Part shown: positions 4,759 to 33,604 of the stretch, piece after piece
How the letters are laid out: each line of letters begins with the position of its first letter
Numbering within the stretch: position 1 is the stretch's first letter
Assembly: GCA_964400575.1 (NCBI GenBank)
Contig: CAYNVA010000379.1
Coordinates: 1-51,700, forward strand
Direction: 5' to 3'
Length of the DNA stretch: 51,700 bases
DNA from: an uncultured Thermodesulfobacteriota bacterium
Lineage (GTDB): Bacteria > Desulfobacterota > WTBG01 > CAIYCZ01 > CAIRTM01
Notes under the pieces: generated by a model
What the model was told of the DNA's origin: nothing
Seen by the model: only the letters and a program-made list of their open reading frames with translations
Database searches by the model: none
Translations under genes and position numbers: made by a program

Positions 4759-5583
4759 CTACAGCAGATACTTCTCCGGGTTGGCGCACAGTCTGCGCAG
4801 GCTCTGTCCCAGCCGGTAAGCATCAACACCGTTGGTAACGCGGTGATCGCCGATAACGGTCAGGTTCAGGGTTTCACGAATCACCACGGCACGGCTTGCG
4901 TCGACAAACGGCTGGGGGCCCATGGCGCAGGCATGTATGCGCAGGCCCCCTTTGATGACCGAAACGATCGGCTTGACAGCAAAAAATCCTGCAGGCCCGC
5001 CGTAGTCATGATTGGAAAGAACGATATTTGAAAGAATGCCGTTTTTAAATGCCACGGTAAAGGAAAGCTTTTCACTGACCAGCCGGTTGATGCCGAGCCT
5101 GAAATAGAGCCGCGGCATGACGCGTGCCAGCCTGCTTTTGCGGCGGGCATGCTCCCTGGTTTTTTCCACCATCTTCAGGATGGATTCCTGTTGAATCTCG
5201 GCAAGCGTCTTGCGATGCGGATTATCAAAGATAATATAGGTGAGAACCTGCTGCTTTCCCGGCAGCATGAAGGCATTGGAAAGGTAAATGCCCTCAATCT
5301 GGTAGACGCTGCGCCCCAGCACCACCTGGTTGTAGGCGGGGTTTTCGTCGATGGCCATGGCGACCAGCTTATTGAGCACATGGGCAAAAGTAATTTTGCG
5401 GCCATAGCGCTCGGAAGCCTCCTGGCACAGGGCAAGACACGGCTCCATATCAAGCGGGTAGACGACCCCGGCGGTAGGGTCGCAGGAGCGGGCAAGCGCG
5501 CTCATGATGTCGAGCCTCAAATCGCCGAGCTCCTGCGGCGAAAGCCTGCGCATGCGCAGTTCTTTTTTTGCGGGTGATTGCAT
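4759..5583 (-). CDS. stand-alone E2-type (CAT-fold) acyltransferase, paralog 2
   Basis: 274 aa, colinear with 3562..4386 from the N-terminus (AKKELxMRRxxPQELGDL) to the C-terminus (GDHRVTNGVDAYRLGQSL). Confidence 0.7.
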   Translation of the reverse strand: MQSPAKKELRMRRLSPQELGDLRLDIMSALARSCDPTAGVVYPLDMEPCLALCQEASERYGRKITFAHVLNKLVAMAIDENPAYNQVVLGRSVYQIEGIYLSNAFMLPGKQQVLTYIIFDNPHRKTLAEIQQESILKMVEKTREHARRKSRLARVMPRLYFRLGINRLVSEKLSFTVAFKNGILSNIVLSNHDYGGPAGFFAVKPIVSVIKGGLRIHACAMGPQPFVDASRAVVIRETLNLTVIGDHRVTNGVDAYRLGQSLRRLCANPEKYLL

Positions 5584-5692
5584 TGCTGCACCGTATCCTG
5601 TGGTTGTAGATTCTCCTTAACACAAAAAGAGCTTTAAATCCACTGCATCCCCGACTTTAAAAGCTGCATGACGGGCACATGCTGGTGGGCAG

Positions 5693-6622
5693 TCATGTAC
5701 TGATAAATGTTCGCCATCCCGCGAGGAGCGCTCCGGGCCGCAGCTCAAGGGCGCCCACAGCCTCGGCAACGGGCGTGAATCCGCAGTGGCTGCAGAGAAC
5801 CGTTCCGCGGCTTTTTGCGTAGCAGCCCTGCGTGATCGTGCCGTCGGGGTCGACGTTTATGAGAATATCCTCGCGGCAGGTCCAGGTATTGCCGATCATG
5901 GCGCGCAGCCTGCCGGTTGAATTCAAAATGGGATACCCCTGCCGCTTGAGTGCAATGGCGGTTTGCATGGCTTCACGACGCTCGGATTCCGTAAGCCCGA
6001 GTTTTTCCTCGCCCTGCCCGTAGGGGTAAAAAAACTGCAGGGTCAGTCCGCGCACGGAAGCAATCCCTGCCAGCAGGTCCAGAAGCCCTTTGAGTTCAAG
6101 CCGGTTTTCGCGGTTGATGGTATGGTGGACGAGAATTTTGCCATGCCGCGTCTTCTCAAGATTGTGCCTGATGCGGGCAAAGGAGGAGCTGCGCAGCCGG
6201 TCATGGGTTTCGGGAAGCCCGTCAATGCTCACCCAGACAACATGGGCGGGCAGGTCAAGGTCCAGGGTGCCGTTGGTGGTTACGGCAACTCGCAGAAAAA
6301 GTTTTTTCGCAAGCTCAATGAGATCATGCACCCTGCGGTCGCCATCGCGCCACAGCAGCGGCTCGCCCCCTTCGAAAACAATCATGCGGCAGCCCGACAG
6401 GGAAAGCTCATGCAGGCAGCGGGCTGCAGTGTCCCAGCCCATATGTCCGCCCGGCTCCTCGGCACGCTGATGGAAGGGGCAGGCCCGGCAGGCAAGGTTG
6501 CAGCGATAGGTGAGCTTGAAACTTGCAAGCAGGGGTACTGGCTGCCCGAGTATCCGGGTGCGCAGAAAAAAATCGGCGAGGTTTATCATCCAGTGCATAA
6601 CCGAAGCGCTTTGCGCACACAT
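5693..6622 (-). CDS. radical SAM protein with C-terminal Cys cluster (SPASM/twitch-like)
   Basis: Motifs: CNLACRACPF (CxxxCxxC), GGEPLL, and C-terminal CYAKSRGTVLCSHCG. The start is uncertain; alternative ATGs are at 6598 and 6589. Confidence 0.8.
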   Translation of the reverse strand: MCAQSASVMHWMINLADFFLRTRILGQPVPLLASFKLTYRCNLACRACPFHQRAEEPGGHMGWDTAARCLHELSLSGCRMIVFEGGEPLLWRDGDRRVHDLIELAKKLFLRVAVTTNGTLDLDLPAHVVWVSIDGLPETHDRLRSSSFARIRHNLEKTRHGKILVHHTINRENRLELKGLLDLLAGIASVRGLTLQFFYPYGQGEEKLGLTESERREAMQTAIALKRQGYPILNSTGRLRAMIGNTWTCREDILINVDPDGTITQGCYAKSRGTVLCSHCGFTPVAEAVGALELRPGALLAGWRTFIST

Positions 6623-25249: not shown

Positions 25250-25346
25250 TTTGCGCCTCAAAATAGCATAAGCGGTGCTATTTTTATAGGATATTTTTCC
25301 AAAGTTGGCAACTGAAAAATTAGCAATTATGAATCTTCGTTTTTTG

Positions 25347-25441
25347 GCGACCGCGAGGCAAAGAAGTACTGATGCGGGCACACGGAGCGAAGCCTTTCGG
25401 CCCTCCCCGCCAGCGGCATGACCGTGCGCATGATACAGGGG
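25347..25441 (+). repeat. direct repeat B (diverged second copy of the thioesterase 3' end)
   Basis: See 23967-24061. It retains an in-frame ...DREAKKY-stop. Confidence 0.8.
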
Positions 25442-25783
25442 CAATATTGGAGAAGCCAAAACCGAGTTCAATATTATCACGTAATGTGGACTTTTTTCCG
25501 ATTTACTTCTACCACCATATATAGAAACTTCTGAGCCATTCTTGTGCTAATAGTGATAGTTGGCTCATCTGCCATATGCCCCCATGTAACACCCTTCATC
25601 TTGAGCTGAACTAATTTCAAGTCATTACACTTACAGCAAATTCAGATAAATTCAGGCCAAAAATCAGAGTTTCCCTGATTGAATAAAATTAAGGATGGGT
25701 CTACATTAATACATAGTGAGGGCTGTTTTAATATTAGTTATAGGTGCAGGAGCAGCATCTTTGCATAGAAGGGGGGATACTCA

Positions 25784-26890
25784 ATGGCCTCTATAAAGAA
25801 AATGCCAAAGAAAATATTAGAGTTGTCTGTTCTCTGTTTTTCACTACTTTTGGTTGTGGCGGTACCAGCATATACTGTTGAATATGAATACACCGAACTG
25901 CTGCCGCCGGGTTGGAATAAGGTAATAATTACTGGCATTAATGATGATGGAGTAGTGGTCGGTTTTGGTGATATTGGAACGGGTGCCGAGGTCTTAGACC
26001 AAAGGGGATTTATTTATAACAATGGCAAATACACTGAGTTGCTGCCGCCGGGCTGGGCTAATGCAAAGGCTATGGGTATCAATAACCGTAATGAGGTGGT
26101 TGGTCAGGGATTTTTGAGTAATAATTACGTGTTGGATAGTCCAGACGATTACCGTGGATTCATCTATAAGGACGGAATATACACGGAGGTATATCCGCCT
26201 TGGCCTGATCTTGGTTTAGTTTCCATTCTTGGGATCACTGACAACGGGGAGGTGGTTGGTACTATGACGGCATGGTCCCCCCAACCTCTTTTTTATGATC
26301 GAGGGTTCATCTACTGGCAAGGTGAGTACAGGGGTTTTATTAGAAAACCCATATGGATGATCGGATCGCCAGATTTTAAAAGCATCAATAACAACTGTGC
26401 GGTAGTGGGGGAGGGGCAGATTTTTTTCTGGCCTTATTCTCCTTTAAATACACGTTGGGGATTTATTTACCGTGGAGGTATATACACTTGGTTGCTGCCA
26501 CCAGGCCGCTGGTATTCAATTGCTTATGGCATAAATGATCAAGGGGCAGTAGTAGGTAGTGCAGGTAACCCATACTCAGGTAAAGTCACTAAAGGGTTTA
26601 TTTACCAATATGGTATATACATTTGGGTATTGCCCCCCGGATGGATCTCCGCCGAGGCGTATGCTATCAATAACAACGGGGCAGTGGTAGGTAGGGGCCT
26701 AGATGGTACTGGTATAATTAAGTTATTCGTTTACAGCAATGGTACATACACCGAGTTGCTGCCGCCGTGTGTAGGTGTGGGGTATCTACAACACAGTGCT
26801 ATCAACAACAACGGGGCAGTGGTATTCTCGACGGATGACCCGTACGATAATTGCACAACAGCATTCATTGCTGTACCAAAAAGTAATTGA
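25784..26890 (+). CDS. secreted repeat protein (HAF-type extracellular repeat-like, probable beta-propeller)
   Basis: Signal peptide, then about 8 repeats of GFIYxxGxYTxLLPPGWxxAxAxGINNxGxVVG. The gene looks AT-rich. Confidence 0.6.
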   Translation: MASIKKMPKKILELSVLCFSLLLVVAVPAYTVEYEYTELLPPGWNKVIITGINDDGVVVGFGDIGTGAEVLDQRGFIYNNGKYTELLPPGWANAKAMGINNRNEVVGQGFLSNNYVLDSPDDYRGFIYKDGIYTEVYPPWPDLGLVSILGITDNGEVVGTMTAWSPQPLFYDRGFIYWQGEYRGFIRKPIWMIGSPDFKSINNNCAVVGEGQIFFWPYSPLNTRWGFIYRGGIYTWLLPPGRWYSIAYGINDQGAVVGSAGNPYSGKVTKGFIYQYGIYIWVLPPGWISAEAYAINNNGAVVGRGLDGTGIIKLFVYSNGTYTELLPPCVGVGYLQHSAINNNGAVVFSTDDPYDNCTTAFIAVPKSN

Positions 26891-27241
26891 TTCAGATGGA
26901 TATGGTACAGGGAAGATACAAGTGATAGCTCCAACCATTAAAGTGCAATCCCTAAACGCATAATGATCAAGGATAACTACCGGTTTGCCGTCTATGGTAG
27001 CTGAAATTATACATAGTGGATGAATGTTCGTAGTAATAAGTCCTGAAAACTGACGAGCCAAGCGAACATGGCGGGACGAGGTATAAAAACGGATTATCTG
27101 CAATTGTCCGAAGGGCAAGAAGTGTCACAACATCTTGTGCCTGTGCCTGCCTACCTAAAACTCCACATTACGGCTCTCTACACGTAACAAAATGATAATT
27201 GACAAGCAGAGGTAAGGTGTCATTATCCATCTGATTTTTCT

Positions 27242-28372
27242 ATGGAAATAGAAAAGGAGATGGAAATGCTGCCTATAAACGTTCAATGCCTACCAATCAA
27301 CATTACTGCATCAAATCTTAGCCAACGGCTAAACAGCCAACCCGGCGCGTCTTCAGCAGGTCCGTTAGGACTACCGTCGGAACCAACTCTTGAGCATAAA
27401 CATCCTGCCATAGACTTCGAACAACAGAAGAGGCATCGTTGTTTAGAGCGGCTGCTGCTGCATTTGGGCCAGAGTGACCTGCCAGAAAAAGAGGTTGTTA
27501 AGCTGTACCTGCAACACAAATACCGTCAGCAGTGCCGTGCCAGTACACTCCAGTTAGTCTATACATCGATTAAGTTTTTCCTGCGTTTTATACAGCAAAA
27601 AGGCAAGACAACCCTGCAGGAGGTCACCCGTCAGGATGTAGAGGCCTTTATTGAGGTACAGCAGGACCGTGGGTCCAAGATTACCACGGTAGGACTTCGA
27701 CTTATGACGCTCAATACATTTTTTCGATTTTTGGTTGATGAAGGCCGGATGCAGGAGAAGGTGCTGTCACACAAGATTCGGCTGAAGCTTCCGGATGTGC
27801 TGCCGCGGGCCATAGATCCTGAATGCTTAAAACGGTTGACCGGTTCTATCTCCCATGTCAGAGACCGTGCACTGATCCTGCTTTTGTTGCGTACCGGGAT
27901 GCGGATCGGGGAGTTGCTCGATACCAGAGTGCAGGATATTGTCATGTCGGAGAAGAAGATTTTGATTTATGAAGCCCGCAAGACCGGCATCGGGCGGGTG
28001 GTGTACTTTAGCGACGATGCCCTGCAGGCCCTTGAGCAGTGGCTGCACAAGCGGGATGCCACCCAGCCGTTTTTGTTTTACAGCAAACAAAACCCCAGGC
28101 TTACCTATGCCGCAGCCCGTAGTGTTTTTATGAAGCATGTGCGCAAGGCAGGTTTGCCCAGCCAGGGTTATACGCTGCATCGGCTGCGCCACAGTTTTGC
28201 CAGCGAACTTCTTAATGCTGGCATGCGGCTGGAGTGCCTCCAGCCGCTTCTGGGACACACGCACATTGAAATGACCCGGCGCTATGCCCGGCTCACGGAC
28301 AAAAGTCGCGAAGAGGAATACTTCCGTGCCATGGCCATCATTGAGCAGGAGGGCATCGATGGACATTACTAA
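27242..28372 (+). CDS. tyrosine recombinase/integrase (XerC/D-like), first of pair
   Basis: An N-terminal SAM-like domain and a catalytic domain with R (LLLRTGMRIGE), HRLRHSFA, LGH and the RRY tyrosine. Confidence 0.85.
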   Translation: MEIEKEMEMLPINVQCLPINITASNLSQRLNSQPGASSAGPLGLPSEPTLEHKHPAIDFEQQKRHRCLERLLLHLGQSDLPEKEVVKLYLQHKYRQQCRASTLQLVYTSIKFFLRFIQQKGKTTLQEVTRQDVEAFIEVQQDRGSKITTVGLRLMTLNTFFRFLVDEGRMQEKVLSHKIRLKLPDVLPRAIDPECLKRLTGSISHVRDRALILLLLRTGMRIGELLDTRVQDIVMSEKKILIYEARKTGIGRVVYFSDDALQALEQWLHKRDATQPFLFYSKQNPRLTYAAARSVFMKHVRKAGLPSQGYTLHRLRHSFASELLNAGMRLECLQPLLGHTHIEMTRRYARLTDKSREEEYFRAMAIIEQEGIDGHY

Positions 28373-29246
28373 TGCAATCATAGATTACCGGCGTCATTTG
28401 AAGCGGCGCAACTGCTCGGCTCACACAATCAAGAGCTACATGAACATGCTGAAGCAGTTTGTCCTGTGGATTGACGTACCCCTTGAGCAGGCAACACGAG
28501 ATAAGCTGATAGACTATGTGGATTATCTTATCAGCAAAAAAGCAAAGCCCAAAACCATCAACTGTCACATCAGCTGCGTGCGTGCTTTTTATGAGTATCT
28601 TGAACGAGAAGAAGCACTGAAGGTGGCAAACCCAGTGCGCAAGGGGTACAGTATGCGATTGCCGCGACCGTTGCCGCGGTTTCTTAATGATGATCAAGTG
28701 GTAAAGCTCTTTGAGGTTATCAAGACACGCCGGGATCGGGCGATGTTTATGCTGATGCTCAGAACCGGTTTGCGGGTTGAAGAGGTATCCCGGTTAACTC
28801 TGGGAGCCGTTGACCTGAAGGGCAACAAAATATTTGTACATCAGGGCAAAGGCGGCAAGGATCGCGTTGTGTATATCAGCTCGGATGCACACCAGGCACT
28901 GGTTGAGTATCTGAGCCACCGGCCGGCGACGCGCTCCAAAGGCCTGTTTCTGGTTGAGAAGGGCACATGCCGGGGCAGCCCCATCTCGGTACGGGGGATT
29001 CAAAAACGGATTGAGTATTACAGTAGCAAGGCCGGGTTGAAAGTATCCTGTCACCAGTTGCGTCACACCATGGCTACCCAGCTTCTCAATGCTGATACGG
29101 GTCTGTCAACTATACAGGACCTGCTGGGCCACGAACTGATTGCAACGACACAGCGCTACTGCCGGGTATGCAATCTGAAAGTGCAGCGGGACTATCACCG
29201 GGCTATGGAGGTTGTTATGCAGAGAACACTGCCTCTGCGGCAATAA
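28359..29246 (+). CDS. tyrosine recombinase/integrase (XerC/D-like), second of pair
   Basis: ATG 28359 follows AGGAGGG and overlaps the first gene by 14 nt. Motifs: LMLRTGLRVEE, HQLRHTMA, LGH, QRY. Confidence 0.85.
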   Translation: MDITNAIIDYRRHLKRRNCSAHTIKSYMNMLKQFVLWIDVPLEQATRDKLIDYVDYLISKKAKPKTINCHISCVRAFYEYLEREEALKVANPVRKGYSMRLPRPLPRFLNDDQVVKLFEVIKTRRDRAMFMLMLRTGLRVEEVSRLTLGAVDLKGNKIFVHQGKGGKDRVVYISSDAHQALVEYLSHRPATRSKGLFLVEKGTCRGSPISVRGIQKRIEYYSSKAGLKVSCHQLRHTMATQLLNADTGLSTIQDLLGHELIATTQRYCRVCNLKVQRDYHRAMEVVMQRTLPLRQ

Positions 29247-29484
29247 CCCTGTCAGGTTACGGGCACTAACAATAGTGAATATTAGATGAAACAGTCTTGA
29301 AATAGAAAAAAAACTAAACTATAAAAAAAATGTAACCAACCATACTACCTTAGAAAAATCAGCTTTGTTACGTGTAGCGGCTCTCAATATGCACAATTTC
29401 AATACGGATAAGAGAGGGCATACCTGCCGTCCTGGGGGCTATGTTTTTCAACTTCCCAGTTGTGTATAGTCTCTCTAAGGAGGT

Positions 29485-33268: not shown

Positions 33269-33287
33269 ATCTCCTCCTTATGTGGCA

Positions 33288-33499
33288 CTCAACTTGACTG
33301 ACTTTCAATAAGGCATAAATAATTTAAATAGTTGCTCTGTGTAGCCAGCGCTCTCACAAGGGTAGGGAGAGCCGCAAGGGCTGAGCGAATGAAGGCGTAT
33401 GCATAAAATAAGAGCTTCTGTTATGAGCACGTAGCCCGCAGCAAGCGACCTGCCCTTGTGAGCGTATGCAACGTATTTTAAAAAATCAGTCAAGTTGAG
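33288..33499. repeat. intergenic element bounded by 14 bp perfect inverted repeats with nested inner stem
   Basis: ctcaacttgactga (33288-301) pairs with tcagtcaagttgag (33486-99). The inner arms are ctcacaaggg and cccttgtgag. Confidence 0.5.
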
Positions 33500-33604
33500 C
33501 AGGCTACTACTATGCCATATTCCCCGGATGAAGTCATTGCCTGCTTGTGCAGAACATTTTAAACAAAGCATCATACGGGCAACAGGTAAAAATCCGGGCG
33601 CGTG

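Follow-up and report, generated by a model that had tools for sequence, protein, structure and literature searches.

The stretch of DNA analysed here (the window, 51.7 kb in full, to which all coordinates refer) forms positions 1 to 51,700 of contig CAYNVA010000379.1 in assembly GCA_964400575.1, from an uncultured Thermodesulfobacteriota bacterium. Near its middle lies a compact element, measuring 2200 bp between the tips of its termini and 2207 bp when one copy of its 7-bp core is included, whose two genes encode overlapping tyrosine recombinases. We estimate a probability of roughly 85% that this is an intact, autonomous element resembling an insertion sequence (IS), which moves by site-specific recombination catalysed by tyrosine recombinases and not by a DDE transposase. 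A self-mobile element with two recombinases had been proposed for this segment in an earlier note made from the sequence alone, and the proposal is now borne out by empty and occupied alleles of the locus and by relatives present in several copies per genome. The element belongs to a large and apparently undescribed family.

Empty and Occupied Alleles at the Locus

Contigs of the same population were found in several samples by searches with the exact products of the genes that flank the element. Five of these contigs (L097, L098, L099, L101 and L102) are empty, with position 27178 joined to 29378 through a single CGGCTCTC, flanks that are 99.7–100% identical to those of the window, and an absent segment of 2207 bp. 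The uninterrupted site that the earlier note had predicted, CCACATTACGGCTCTCAATATGCAC, stands verbatim in all five. Occupied alleles are seen in L100 and L103, and a further contig, L104, ends right at the left terminus. The empty L097 (27.6 kb) and the occupied L103 share one sample. Taken together, the two kinds of allele show that a precise and recent insertion or excision has occurred at this locus.

Architecture of the Element

The element is bounded by perfect terminal inverted repeats. The left one, CTACACGTAACAAA, occupies 27178–27191 on the plus strand, and all 14 of its positions are matched by the reverse complement at 29364–29377, which lies on the minus strand and reads TTTGTTACGTGTAG on the plus strand; the termini first described as 13 bp long and extendable to 14 bp are thus confirmed at the greater length. 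With up to two mismatches allowed, CTACACGTAACAAA has only two matches in the window, namely the termini themselves, against a chance expectation of 0.17. The left border also agrees with the family consensus CTRTACGTAAC, found at this place in about 45 loci, and the broken contig L104 ends exactly at 27178.

The sequence CGGCTCTC stands directly outside both termini, at 27171–27178 and 29378–29385. By itself this 8-mer is not significant, as the window holds three copies against about 1.8 expected. The earlier note had taken the whole 8-mer as the unit of interest; it is indeed present on both sides, but about 40 related elements set the register of the direct repeat at 7 bp, CGGCTCT, with a left, target-side copy at 27171–27177 and a right copy, which would travel with the element, at 29378–29384, both on the plus strand. 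The empty site holds a single copy. The eighth base, C, is the first base of the terminus on the left and a chance match of the target on the right, and it is regarded as coincidental because the base following the right 7-mer varies among relatives and unoccupied targets.

Inside the termini lies a second pair of repeats. The subterminal 12-mer CTGATTTTTCTA is found at 27231–27242, and its inverted copy at 29351–29362, just as had been reported for it; when extended, the pair comprises 20 nt at 85% identity (27231–27250 on the plus strand and 29343–29362 on the minus strand). The left core is placed 54–65 nt from the tip, between a promoter-like sequence and the ribosome-binding site of the first gene, while the right copy directly abuts the right terminus. 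The promoter-like sequence is recognised by its match to the consensus alone, as TTGACA-16 nt-CATTAT preceded by a TG; it occupies 27199–27226 on the plus strand and is directed toward the first gene, and a TTGAC box recurs at an equal offset in most subfamilies. Nearly all of 12 subfamily representatives carry the subterminal repeat, 52–70 nt from the left tip and, inverted, 14–30 nt from the right tip. Its sequence varies from one subfamily to the next, yet it covaries between the two ends, and this joint change makes it a candidate protein-binding site, which, downstream of the promoter, probably serves an accessory or autoregulatory function. Because homologous recombinase pairs elsewhere are bordered by the same architecture, these features are far beyond chance.

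The Two Recombinases

The two genes, ORF1 (27242–28372) and ORF2 (28359–29246), are both read from the plus strand and overlap by 14 nt. For ORF1, a start at 27266 is more likely than one at 27242, since the sequence AAAGGAG at 27253–27259 lies 6 nt before that ATG and most close homologs are 368 amino acids long. The protein encoded by 27266–28372 thus has 368 amino acids (376 if begun at 27242), while the shorter, Xer-like product of ORF2 has 295. Both proteins match the Phage_integrase and SAM-like N-terminal domains of Pfam, with E values of 1e-36 for ORF1 and 2e-38 for ORF2, and their scores of 127 and 132 bits against PF00589, whose cut-off is 27, place them in the tyrosine recombinase superfamily. 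In each of the two proteins, the catalytic R, K, HxxR, H and Y residues show no variation across 11 family members, and the description of the genes as an overlapping pair of XerC/D-like recombinases with catalytic residues stands. In ORF1 the invariant residues are R213, K239, H305, R308, H331 and Y340; the protein consists of a variable N-terminus, of which 55–80 residues are poorly conserved, a SAM-like domain and a catalytic domain, and the tail that follows the catalytic tyrosine is strongly conserved.

The closest solved structures are those of archaeal XerA (4a8e; E values of 2e-28 and 4e-30) and E. coli XerD (1a0p), and for both ORFs the alignments span the motifs of the catalytic domain. 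The best matches among curated models are likewise XerA, XerC and XerD, all of them far below the family cut-offs: 155 and 205 bits for XerA against 220, 143 and 201 for XerC against 335, and 126 and 170 for XerD against 330. No specific model for either recombinase was found in curated protein-family libraries, and a PADLOC scan gave no defence-system match. Against the best-matching RitA/B/C trio of the recombinase-in-trio (RIT) elements, that of plasmid pHG1, ORF1 and ORF2 show 24–32% identity at 70–79 bits or less, which is weaker than the match to XerA and no better than the general level of the superfamily. By these comparisons, both proteins are Xer-like enzymes of a generic kind, and their resemblance to RIT proteins does not exceed that to XerA or XerD. 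They are old paralogs, with about 30% identity to each other. ORF2 is the more conserved of the two, with a mean identity of 61% against 56% for ORF1 and the higher value in 61 of 66 pairs; this gap was considered as a means of assigning each protein to a DNA site, and was set aside as too weak to decide.

Such similarities could also be read as those of a resident recombination system of the host, serving Xer dimer resolution or acting as a DNA-inversion switch, in which the inverted repeats are its sites and nothing is mobile. Source labels, including those of the Joint Genome Institute (JGI), call the homologs XerC/XerD or generic integrases; the models and structures just named agree with a Xer identity, and inverted repeats flank the segment as they would an invertible one. 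We regard a host system as highly improbable all the same, as scores of 126–205 bits fall short of cut-offs of 220–335 for XerC, XerD and XerA, some genomes hold three to five identical copies, one population contains both alleles with the complete unit and alleles that lack it precisely, and the direct orientation of the asymmetric 7-bp cores would lead to excision and not to inversion.

Distribution and Copy Number of the Family

Protein searches return thousands of homologous proteins, mostly on metagenome contigs of 2–3 kb, a prevalence of short contigs such as is usual where a repeat interrupts assembly. In a scan of species-representative genomes, 80 of 160 matching stretches were kept as loci. 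The hosts of the at least 80 related loci are genome bins mainly of Desulfobacterota (Syntrophobacteraceae, Smithella, Syntrophus and Desulfobacterales) and Nitrospirota (Thermodesulfovibrionales and Nitrospiraceae). A homolog of ORF2 directly follows that of ORF1 in 75 of the 80 loci, the five without it being mostly truncated contig ends. Plasmids yielded one distant match only, at 32% identity, and viral contigs no relatives.

The search for further copies that the earlier note had suggested was successful in several genomes, where three to five near-identical copies have unrelated flanks. A Nitrospiraceae bin (CAVTNL) holds five copies of 2066 bp, one of them disrupted by an IS, and two delta-proteobacterial bins hold five copies of 3283 bp (CAVQYC) and three copies of 2374 bp (CAWGGE). 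Within these multicopy bins, which derive from long reads, the copies are 99.5–100% identical and their homology stops sharply at flanks that bear no relation to one another. The borders read CTRTACGTAAY ... RTTACGTAYAG in about 45 loci, and the termini abut a 7-bp direct repeat in about 40 complete loci. Homologous recombinase pairs elsewhere do have, at their borders, the same inverted termini with a short direct repeat set against them, a feature whose absence was to have spoken against a mobile element.

Several variants of the basic form were observed. In the disrupted copy of the Nitrospiraceae bin (L058, ~4790–6010), a 1.2 kb insertion splits the second recombinase gene and encodes, on the opposite strand, a 351-aa protein that resembles a helix-turn-helix transposase and appears to belong to an IS nested in the element. 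In variants of 3.3–3.4 kb, the recombinases are followed by a third conserved ORF of some 400 amino acids (L076:4846-6048 and L063:4936-6156; also L066 and L078–L081); its product gave only TPR-like matches that were weak and below threshold, matched no defence system, is not a recombinase, and may be an accessory factor or cargo. Solitary sequences resembling the left terminus (CTRTACGTAAC...), at L005:2555-2576 and L006:2789-2810, stand 65–190 bp upstream of the true left ends of two elements, and these may be remnants of earlier insertions into the same target.

The 7-bp Core

The 7-mers are specific to lineages of the family, and include CACCTAC, CTTGCCA, TGTTGTA, GTAGGTG, CTCTCCT, CAGGGTG and GAGCGTA, among others. 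Within one genome the right 7-mer is invariant and the left one sometimes deviates from it; in the Nitrospiraceae bin, for example, the right copy is always CAGGGTG, while the left is CAGGGTG, CTTGGTG (twice), CAGAGTG or GGAGGTG. The copy typical of the lineage is the right one in all nine informative cases, with no counter-example, and it is stable across genomes as well, CAGGGTG being found in two bins and CGCGGTG in two. In those nine cases, left and right agree at position 6 throughout and at positions 5 and 7 in eight cases each, and the mismatches fall mostly in positions 1–4.

The earlier note had left it open whether the repeat was a crossover core or a duplicated target. The lineage specificity of the 7-mer, the constancy of its right copy and the confinement of deviations to the left one favour a crossover core borne by the element, and disfavour a duplication of the transposase type. 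The latter would require a transposase supplied in trans, making an ordinary target-site duplication with the recombinases as mere passengers. Although DDE transposons are classically recognised by short direct repeats next to their terminal inverted repeats, we find this account scarcely credible. A 7-mer that is constant in each lineage, different between lineages and imperfect only on the left is unlike the product of staggered cuts in random targets; the insertions are orientation-specific and occur at sites already holding the 7-mer; and no transposase gene lies inside any element except for the secondary IS in L058.

Target Sites

One relative, L001, is 93% identical to the element of the window, with a homology that starts about 50 bp to the left of the terminus. 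The true left end was accordingly considered to lie near 27127, and this was rejected, as the ~50 bp are a target repeat that occurs free of the element in 14 loci and stays behind in empty sites. The apparent conservation of the left flank reflects insertion into a target that is itself conserved and repeated. This target left half (27127–27170, plus strand) is a conserved intergenic repeat motif of about 50 bp (CACAACATCTTGTGCC...AAAACTCCACATTA) outside the element; it is kept beside the element in L001 and L003, and a metagenome scan for the left flank found AAACTCCACAYTACGGCTCT in 14 loci, none of which continues into an element. The right half (29385–29484, plus strand) begins with CAATATGCAC, which imperfectly matches, in inverted form, the CCACATTA of the left side, and goes on as a degenerate version of the conserved block; in the empty-site contigs it is contiguous with the left flank.

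The left flank thus belongs to a conserved intergenic block, about 200 bp long, of which it makes up the left half; the centre of the block is an imperfect palindrome about the core, TCCACATTA-CGGCTCT-nAATrTGG. The orientation of insertion relative to the block is constant at all four junctions available in this lineage. The TGTTGTA lineage shows a comparable target, ACTGGACAnTT-TGTTGTA-AAnTGTCCAGT, again with constant orientation (4/4), and about 45 bp of left flank are also conserved in four of the seven loci examined. Unoccupied targets of the TGTTGTA type stand in the same loci, including variants in which the spacer is GAGCGTA, the core sequence of a sister element, and empty target palindromes with the same spacer are present in the same genomes. 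Over all lineages the symmetry of the target is modest (5.0 against 3.5 of 12 positions), and it is strong only in some of them.

The block itself was followed beyond the element. It spans 27127–27177 and 29385–~29500 of the window, and further copies lie beside unrelated genes in L082–L095 and at L001:1060-1110. Its right continuation takes two forms, an 'A' type (TAATGTGGA...CCATTACGTAATTATTCCACATTACCAG...TCTGTCAGATTAA) and a 'B' type (CTAACTGGACAAAACAAAA...ACCAAACGTAACATG), which in longer loci stands at the 3' end of a convergent gene. In L001 and L084, two copies of the block about 1.7 kb apart bracket a gene for a secreted repeat protein. A comparison of the block with Rfam gave no family at threshold and only noise at relaxed thresholds. 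Its interpretation as an RNA gene was discarded, since the consensus folds were weak on both strands (-3.6 and -8.3 kcal/mol) and covariation was nearly confined to the hairpin around the core. Candidate explanations for the block are a repeat family, a cassette boundary or a remnant of another element.

A Model of Movement

Movement of the element is proposed to proceed as follows. Recombination between the two directly repeated 7-bp cores would release a circle, excision and not inversion being expected because the cores are asymmetric and in direct orientation. The junction of the circle, right terminus-CGGCTCT-left terminus, would resemble loxP or dif, with 14-bp inverted arms around an asymmetric 7-bp spacer. 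The circle would then integrate at sites that share the 7-mer, in the one orientation that the asymmetry of the spacer dictates, and in this lineage the target would be the spacer of the palindrome inside the ~200-bp repeated intergenic block. The 7-mer at the right terminus would travel with the element, and that at the left terminus would come from the target.

In recombination by tyrosine recombinases, one strand is cut at one end of the spacer and the other strand at the other end, and homology is tested with the first two or three bases that are swapped. Where heterology lies further inside the spacer, the second exchange is prevented and replication resolves the junction, as in the Xer-mediated integration of CTX phage. 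For the present element, the first strand exchange is proposed to take place at the boundary between core and left terminus, with homology tested over the first two to three bases, and a heterologous remainder of the core would leave a junction to be resolved by replication. This assignment would fit the observation that the right 7-mer is always that of the element and the left always that of the target, with positions 5–7 kept identical.

The same anatomy would also be compatible with a strand-biased copy-out/copy-in process like that of the strand-biased circularizing integrative (SE) elements, and probably of Tn554, in which one strand is exchanged per step, the donor is kept and excision makes no empty site. 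The fate of the spacer agrees with that reported for SEs, where the spacer of the circle goes to the recombinase-distal end and bases of the target to the proximal one (PMC10214605), as in all nine cases here. Families of near-identical copies fit replicative spread, and the empty alleles can be simply ancestral. On the other hand, the proximal bases of an SE enter the circle, so that the spacer should change with every hop, and the stability of the right 7-mer speaks somewhat against this; in addition, neither tfp nor srap, the accessory genes of SEs, is present. On balance, we hold a copy-out/copy-in route to be rather unlikely, though worth serious attention.

Some observations count against movement by excision and reintegration of a circle at matching cores. 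The empty alleles could be ancestral instead of products of excision, and the circle junction was not found in the related loci examined or in viral contigs. The left 7-mer of L014, which sits in a palindrome, matches the right one at only two of seven positions, which implies that identity of the core is not strictly required and that the arms of the target may matter. Finally, L103, L106 and L107, from three assemblies, link the left flank of the window through the element to a different right flank, which may reflect a second copy, a rearrangement mediated by the recombinases, or an assembly chimera over the 2.2 kb repeat. That other flank consists of an 'A'-type block followed by HGD-D and BcrAD/BadFG genes (L103 being equivalent to L105 and L108), while L100, from a sample shared with one of those assemblies, has the right flank of the window itself.

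A division of labour between the two recombinases is conceivable, and we offer it tentatively, as a quite doubtful proposition. One recombinase would bind the invariant, perfectly symmetric termini and the other the palindromic arms of the lineage-specific target, in a tetramer made of two different homodimers, so that the 7-bp spacer would be the only match required between the two DNAs. If this were true, the element would be a minimal system that is retargetable by nature, its specificity being open to change by a swap of the core and the evolution of one protein, and it would spread through the genome of a host by occupying any family of palindromic repeats available there.

Comparison with Known Recombination Systems

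The closest proteins by sequence are XerA and XerD, and the predicted junction of the element is laid out like the sites of the XerC/XerD-dif, archaeal XerA-dif and Cre-loxP systems, with inverted arms around an asymmetric spacer of 6–8 bp. Those systems are single-copy and serve housekeeping functions or the resolution of plasmids and phages at one fixed site, whereas the present pair is carried inside the DNA that is moved. Its arms are perfectly symmetric, and those of XerC and XerD are distinct from each other.

The transposon Tn554 has three transposition genes, including those for a TnpB of 630 amino acids and for TnpC, carries resistance cargo, is about 6.7 kb long, and has only imperfect terminal repeats. 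It shares with the present element a requirement for two tyrosine recombinases and a strong specificity of site and orientation. Here, however, recombinases of 368 and 295 amino acids are the only products, with neither a long TnpB-like protein nor a conserved ORF of the size of TnpC, and the two are set apart by gene content. A further likeness is the core sequence of 6–7 bp that accompanies the junctions of Tn554 in place of a true duplication (summarised in PMC10214605 and PMC3414803).

RIT elements are likewise made up almost entirely of neighbouring tyrosine recombinase genes that overlap; they too lie between inverted repeats, and some genomes contain several copies of them. They contain three genes of distinct families, RitA, RitB and RitC, over about 3.5 kb with ill-defined ends (PMC3414803), whereas two recombinase genes are found here and in 75 of the 80 related loci, and the proteins fall outside the RitA/B/C families. 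SEs share several features with the element: both have more than one tyrosine recombinase and short terminal inverted repeats (13–19 bp in SEs), the joined ends of SEs have a 6-bp spacer, this spacer goes to the recombinase-distal end and target bases to the proximal one (PMC10214605), and there is a preference for particular target sites. The gene set of SEs is intA, tfp, intB and srap, while no genes stand between or after the two recombinases here. SEs are limited to Gammaproteobacteria, at one or two copies per replicon; the present family occurs in Desulfobacterota and Nitrospirota, and reaches at least five copies per genome. Compared with SEs, the element has two genes in 2.2 kb, perfect termini, a 7-bp core and a travelling spacer that is apparently stable.

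Orientation-specific insertion into small, multicopy, palindromic intergenic repeats is also known from ISs that target repetitive extragenic palindromic (REP) sequences, such as ISPpu9 of the IS110 family (PMC12288879; survey in PMC1525189). Those ISs use DEDD or DDE transposases, some with guide RNAs, in contrast to the tyrosine recombinases of the present element, for which the shared sequence is the 7-bp spacer. From classical DDE ISs the element differs in that no transposase of the DDE/RNase H fold is present, and in that its 7-mer is lineage-specific and pre-exists in targets instead of being arbitrary. GInt elements have four core genes against two here, and the bipartite modules (BIM) of Cupriavidus were rejected as a match, as they combine one recombinase with a protein that is not a recombinase. 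By gene content, therefore, the element is not RIT, Tn554, SE, GInt or BIM, nor is it a housekeeping Xer system; it works like multi-recombinase elements and classical core-site recombination, in a much smaller unit with perfect termini. A full-text literature search found no description of a two-gene element of Xer-like recombinases with these termini; the literature covered is incomplete, which leaves absence unproven.

Other Features of the Window

A second candidate for a mobile sequence lies to the right of the element. At 33282–33505 there is an insert of about 212 bp with terminal inverted repeats of 18 bp (CTCAACTTGACTGACTTT at 33288–33305, partner at 33482–33499) and an internal inverted repeat of 14 bp, which is missing from L097 and L098 of the same population and looks like a miniature, non-autonomous transposable element, polymorphic in that population. 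The third copy of CGGCTCTC in the window lies inside it, probably by chance. The region 25250–27500 has a low GC content of 0.40–0.45, against about 0.58 around it. Within this region, the left neighbour of the element is a gene for a repeat protein of 368 amino acids (25784–26890) with a weak DUF3466 match, and other, secreted-looking repeat proteins are encoded next to the target motif in L001 and L084. On the right, a DUF6036 nucleotidyltransferase gene and a small upstream ORF form what looks like a pair of the toxin-antitoxin type.

Significance

Classification of the smallest self-mobile bacterial elements relies almost wholly on DDE, DEDD, HUH and serine transposases, and a very abundant family of 2 kb elements with nothing but two tyrosine recombinases would add a class to these. 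It would also account for many genes labelled XerC/XerD in bacteria of sediment and groundwater. Being compact and clearly bounded, the element could serve as a model for questions that arise from Tn554, RIT, SE and GInt, namely why two or more recombinases are needed, which strand is exchanged first, and how the spacer travels. Recombinases that accept targets set largely by a 7-bp spacer would be of practical interest for genome engineering. For the organisms themselves, in which insertions often appear to lie inside the small palindromic repeats of sediment-bacteria genomes, the elements and their target repeats break short-read assemblies, and may drive rearrangements in anaerobes that are hard to culture.

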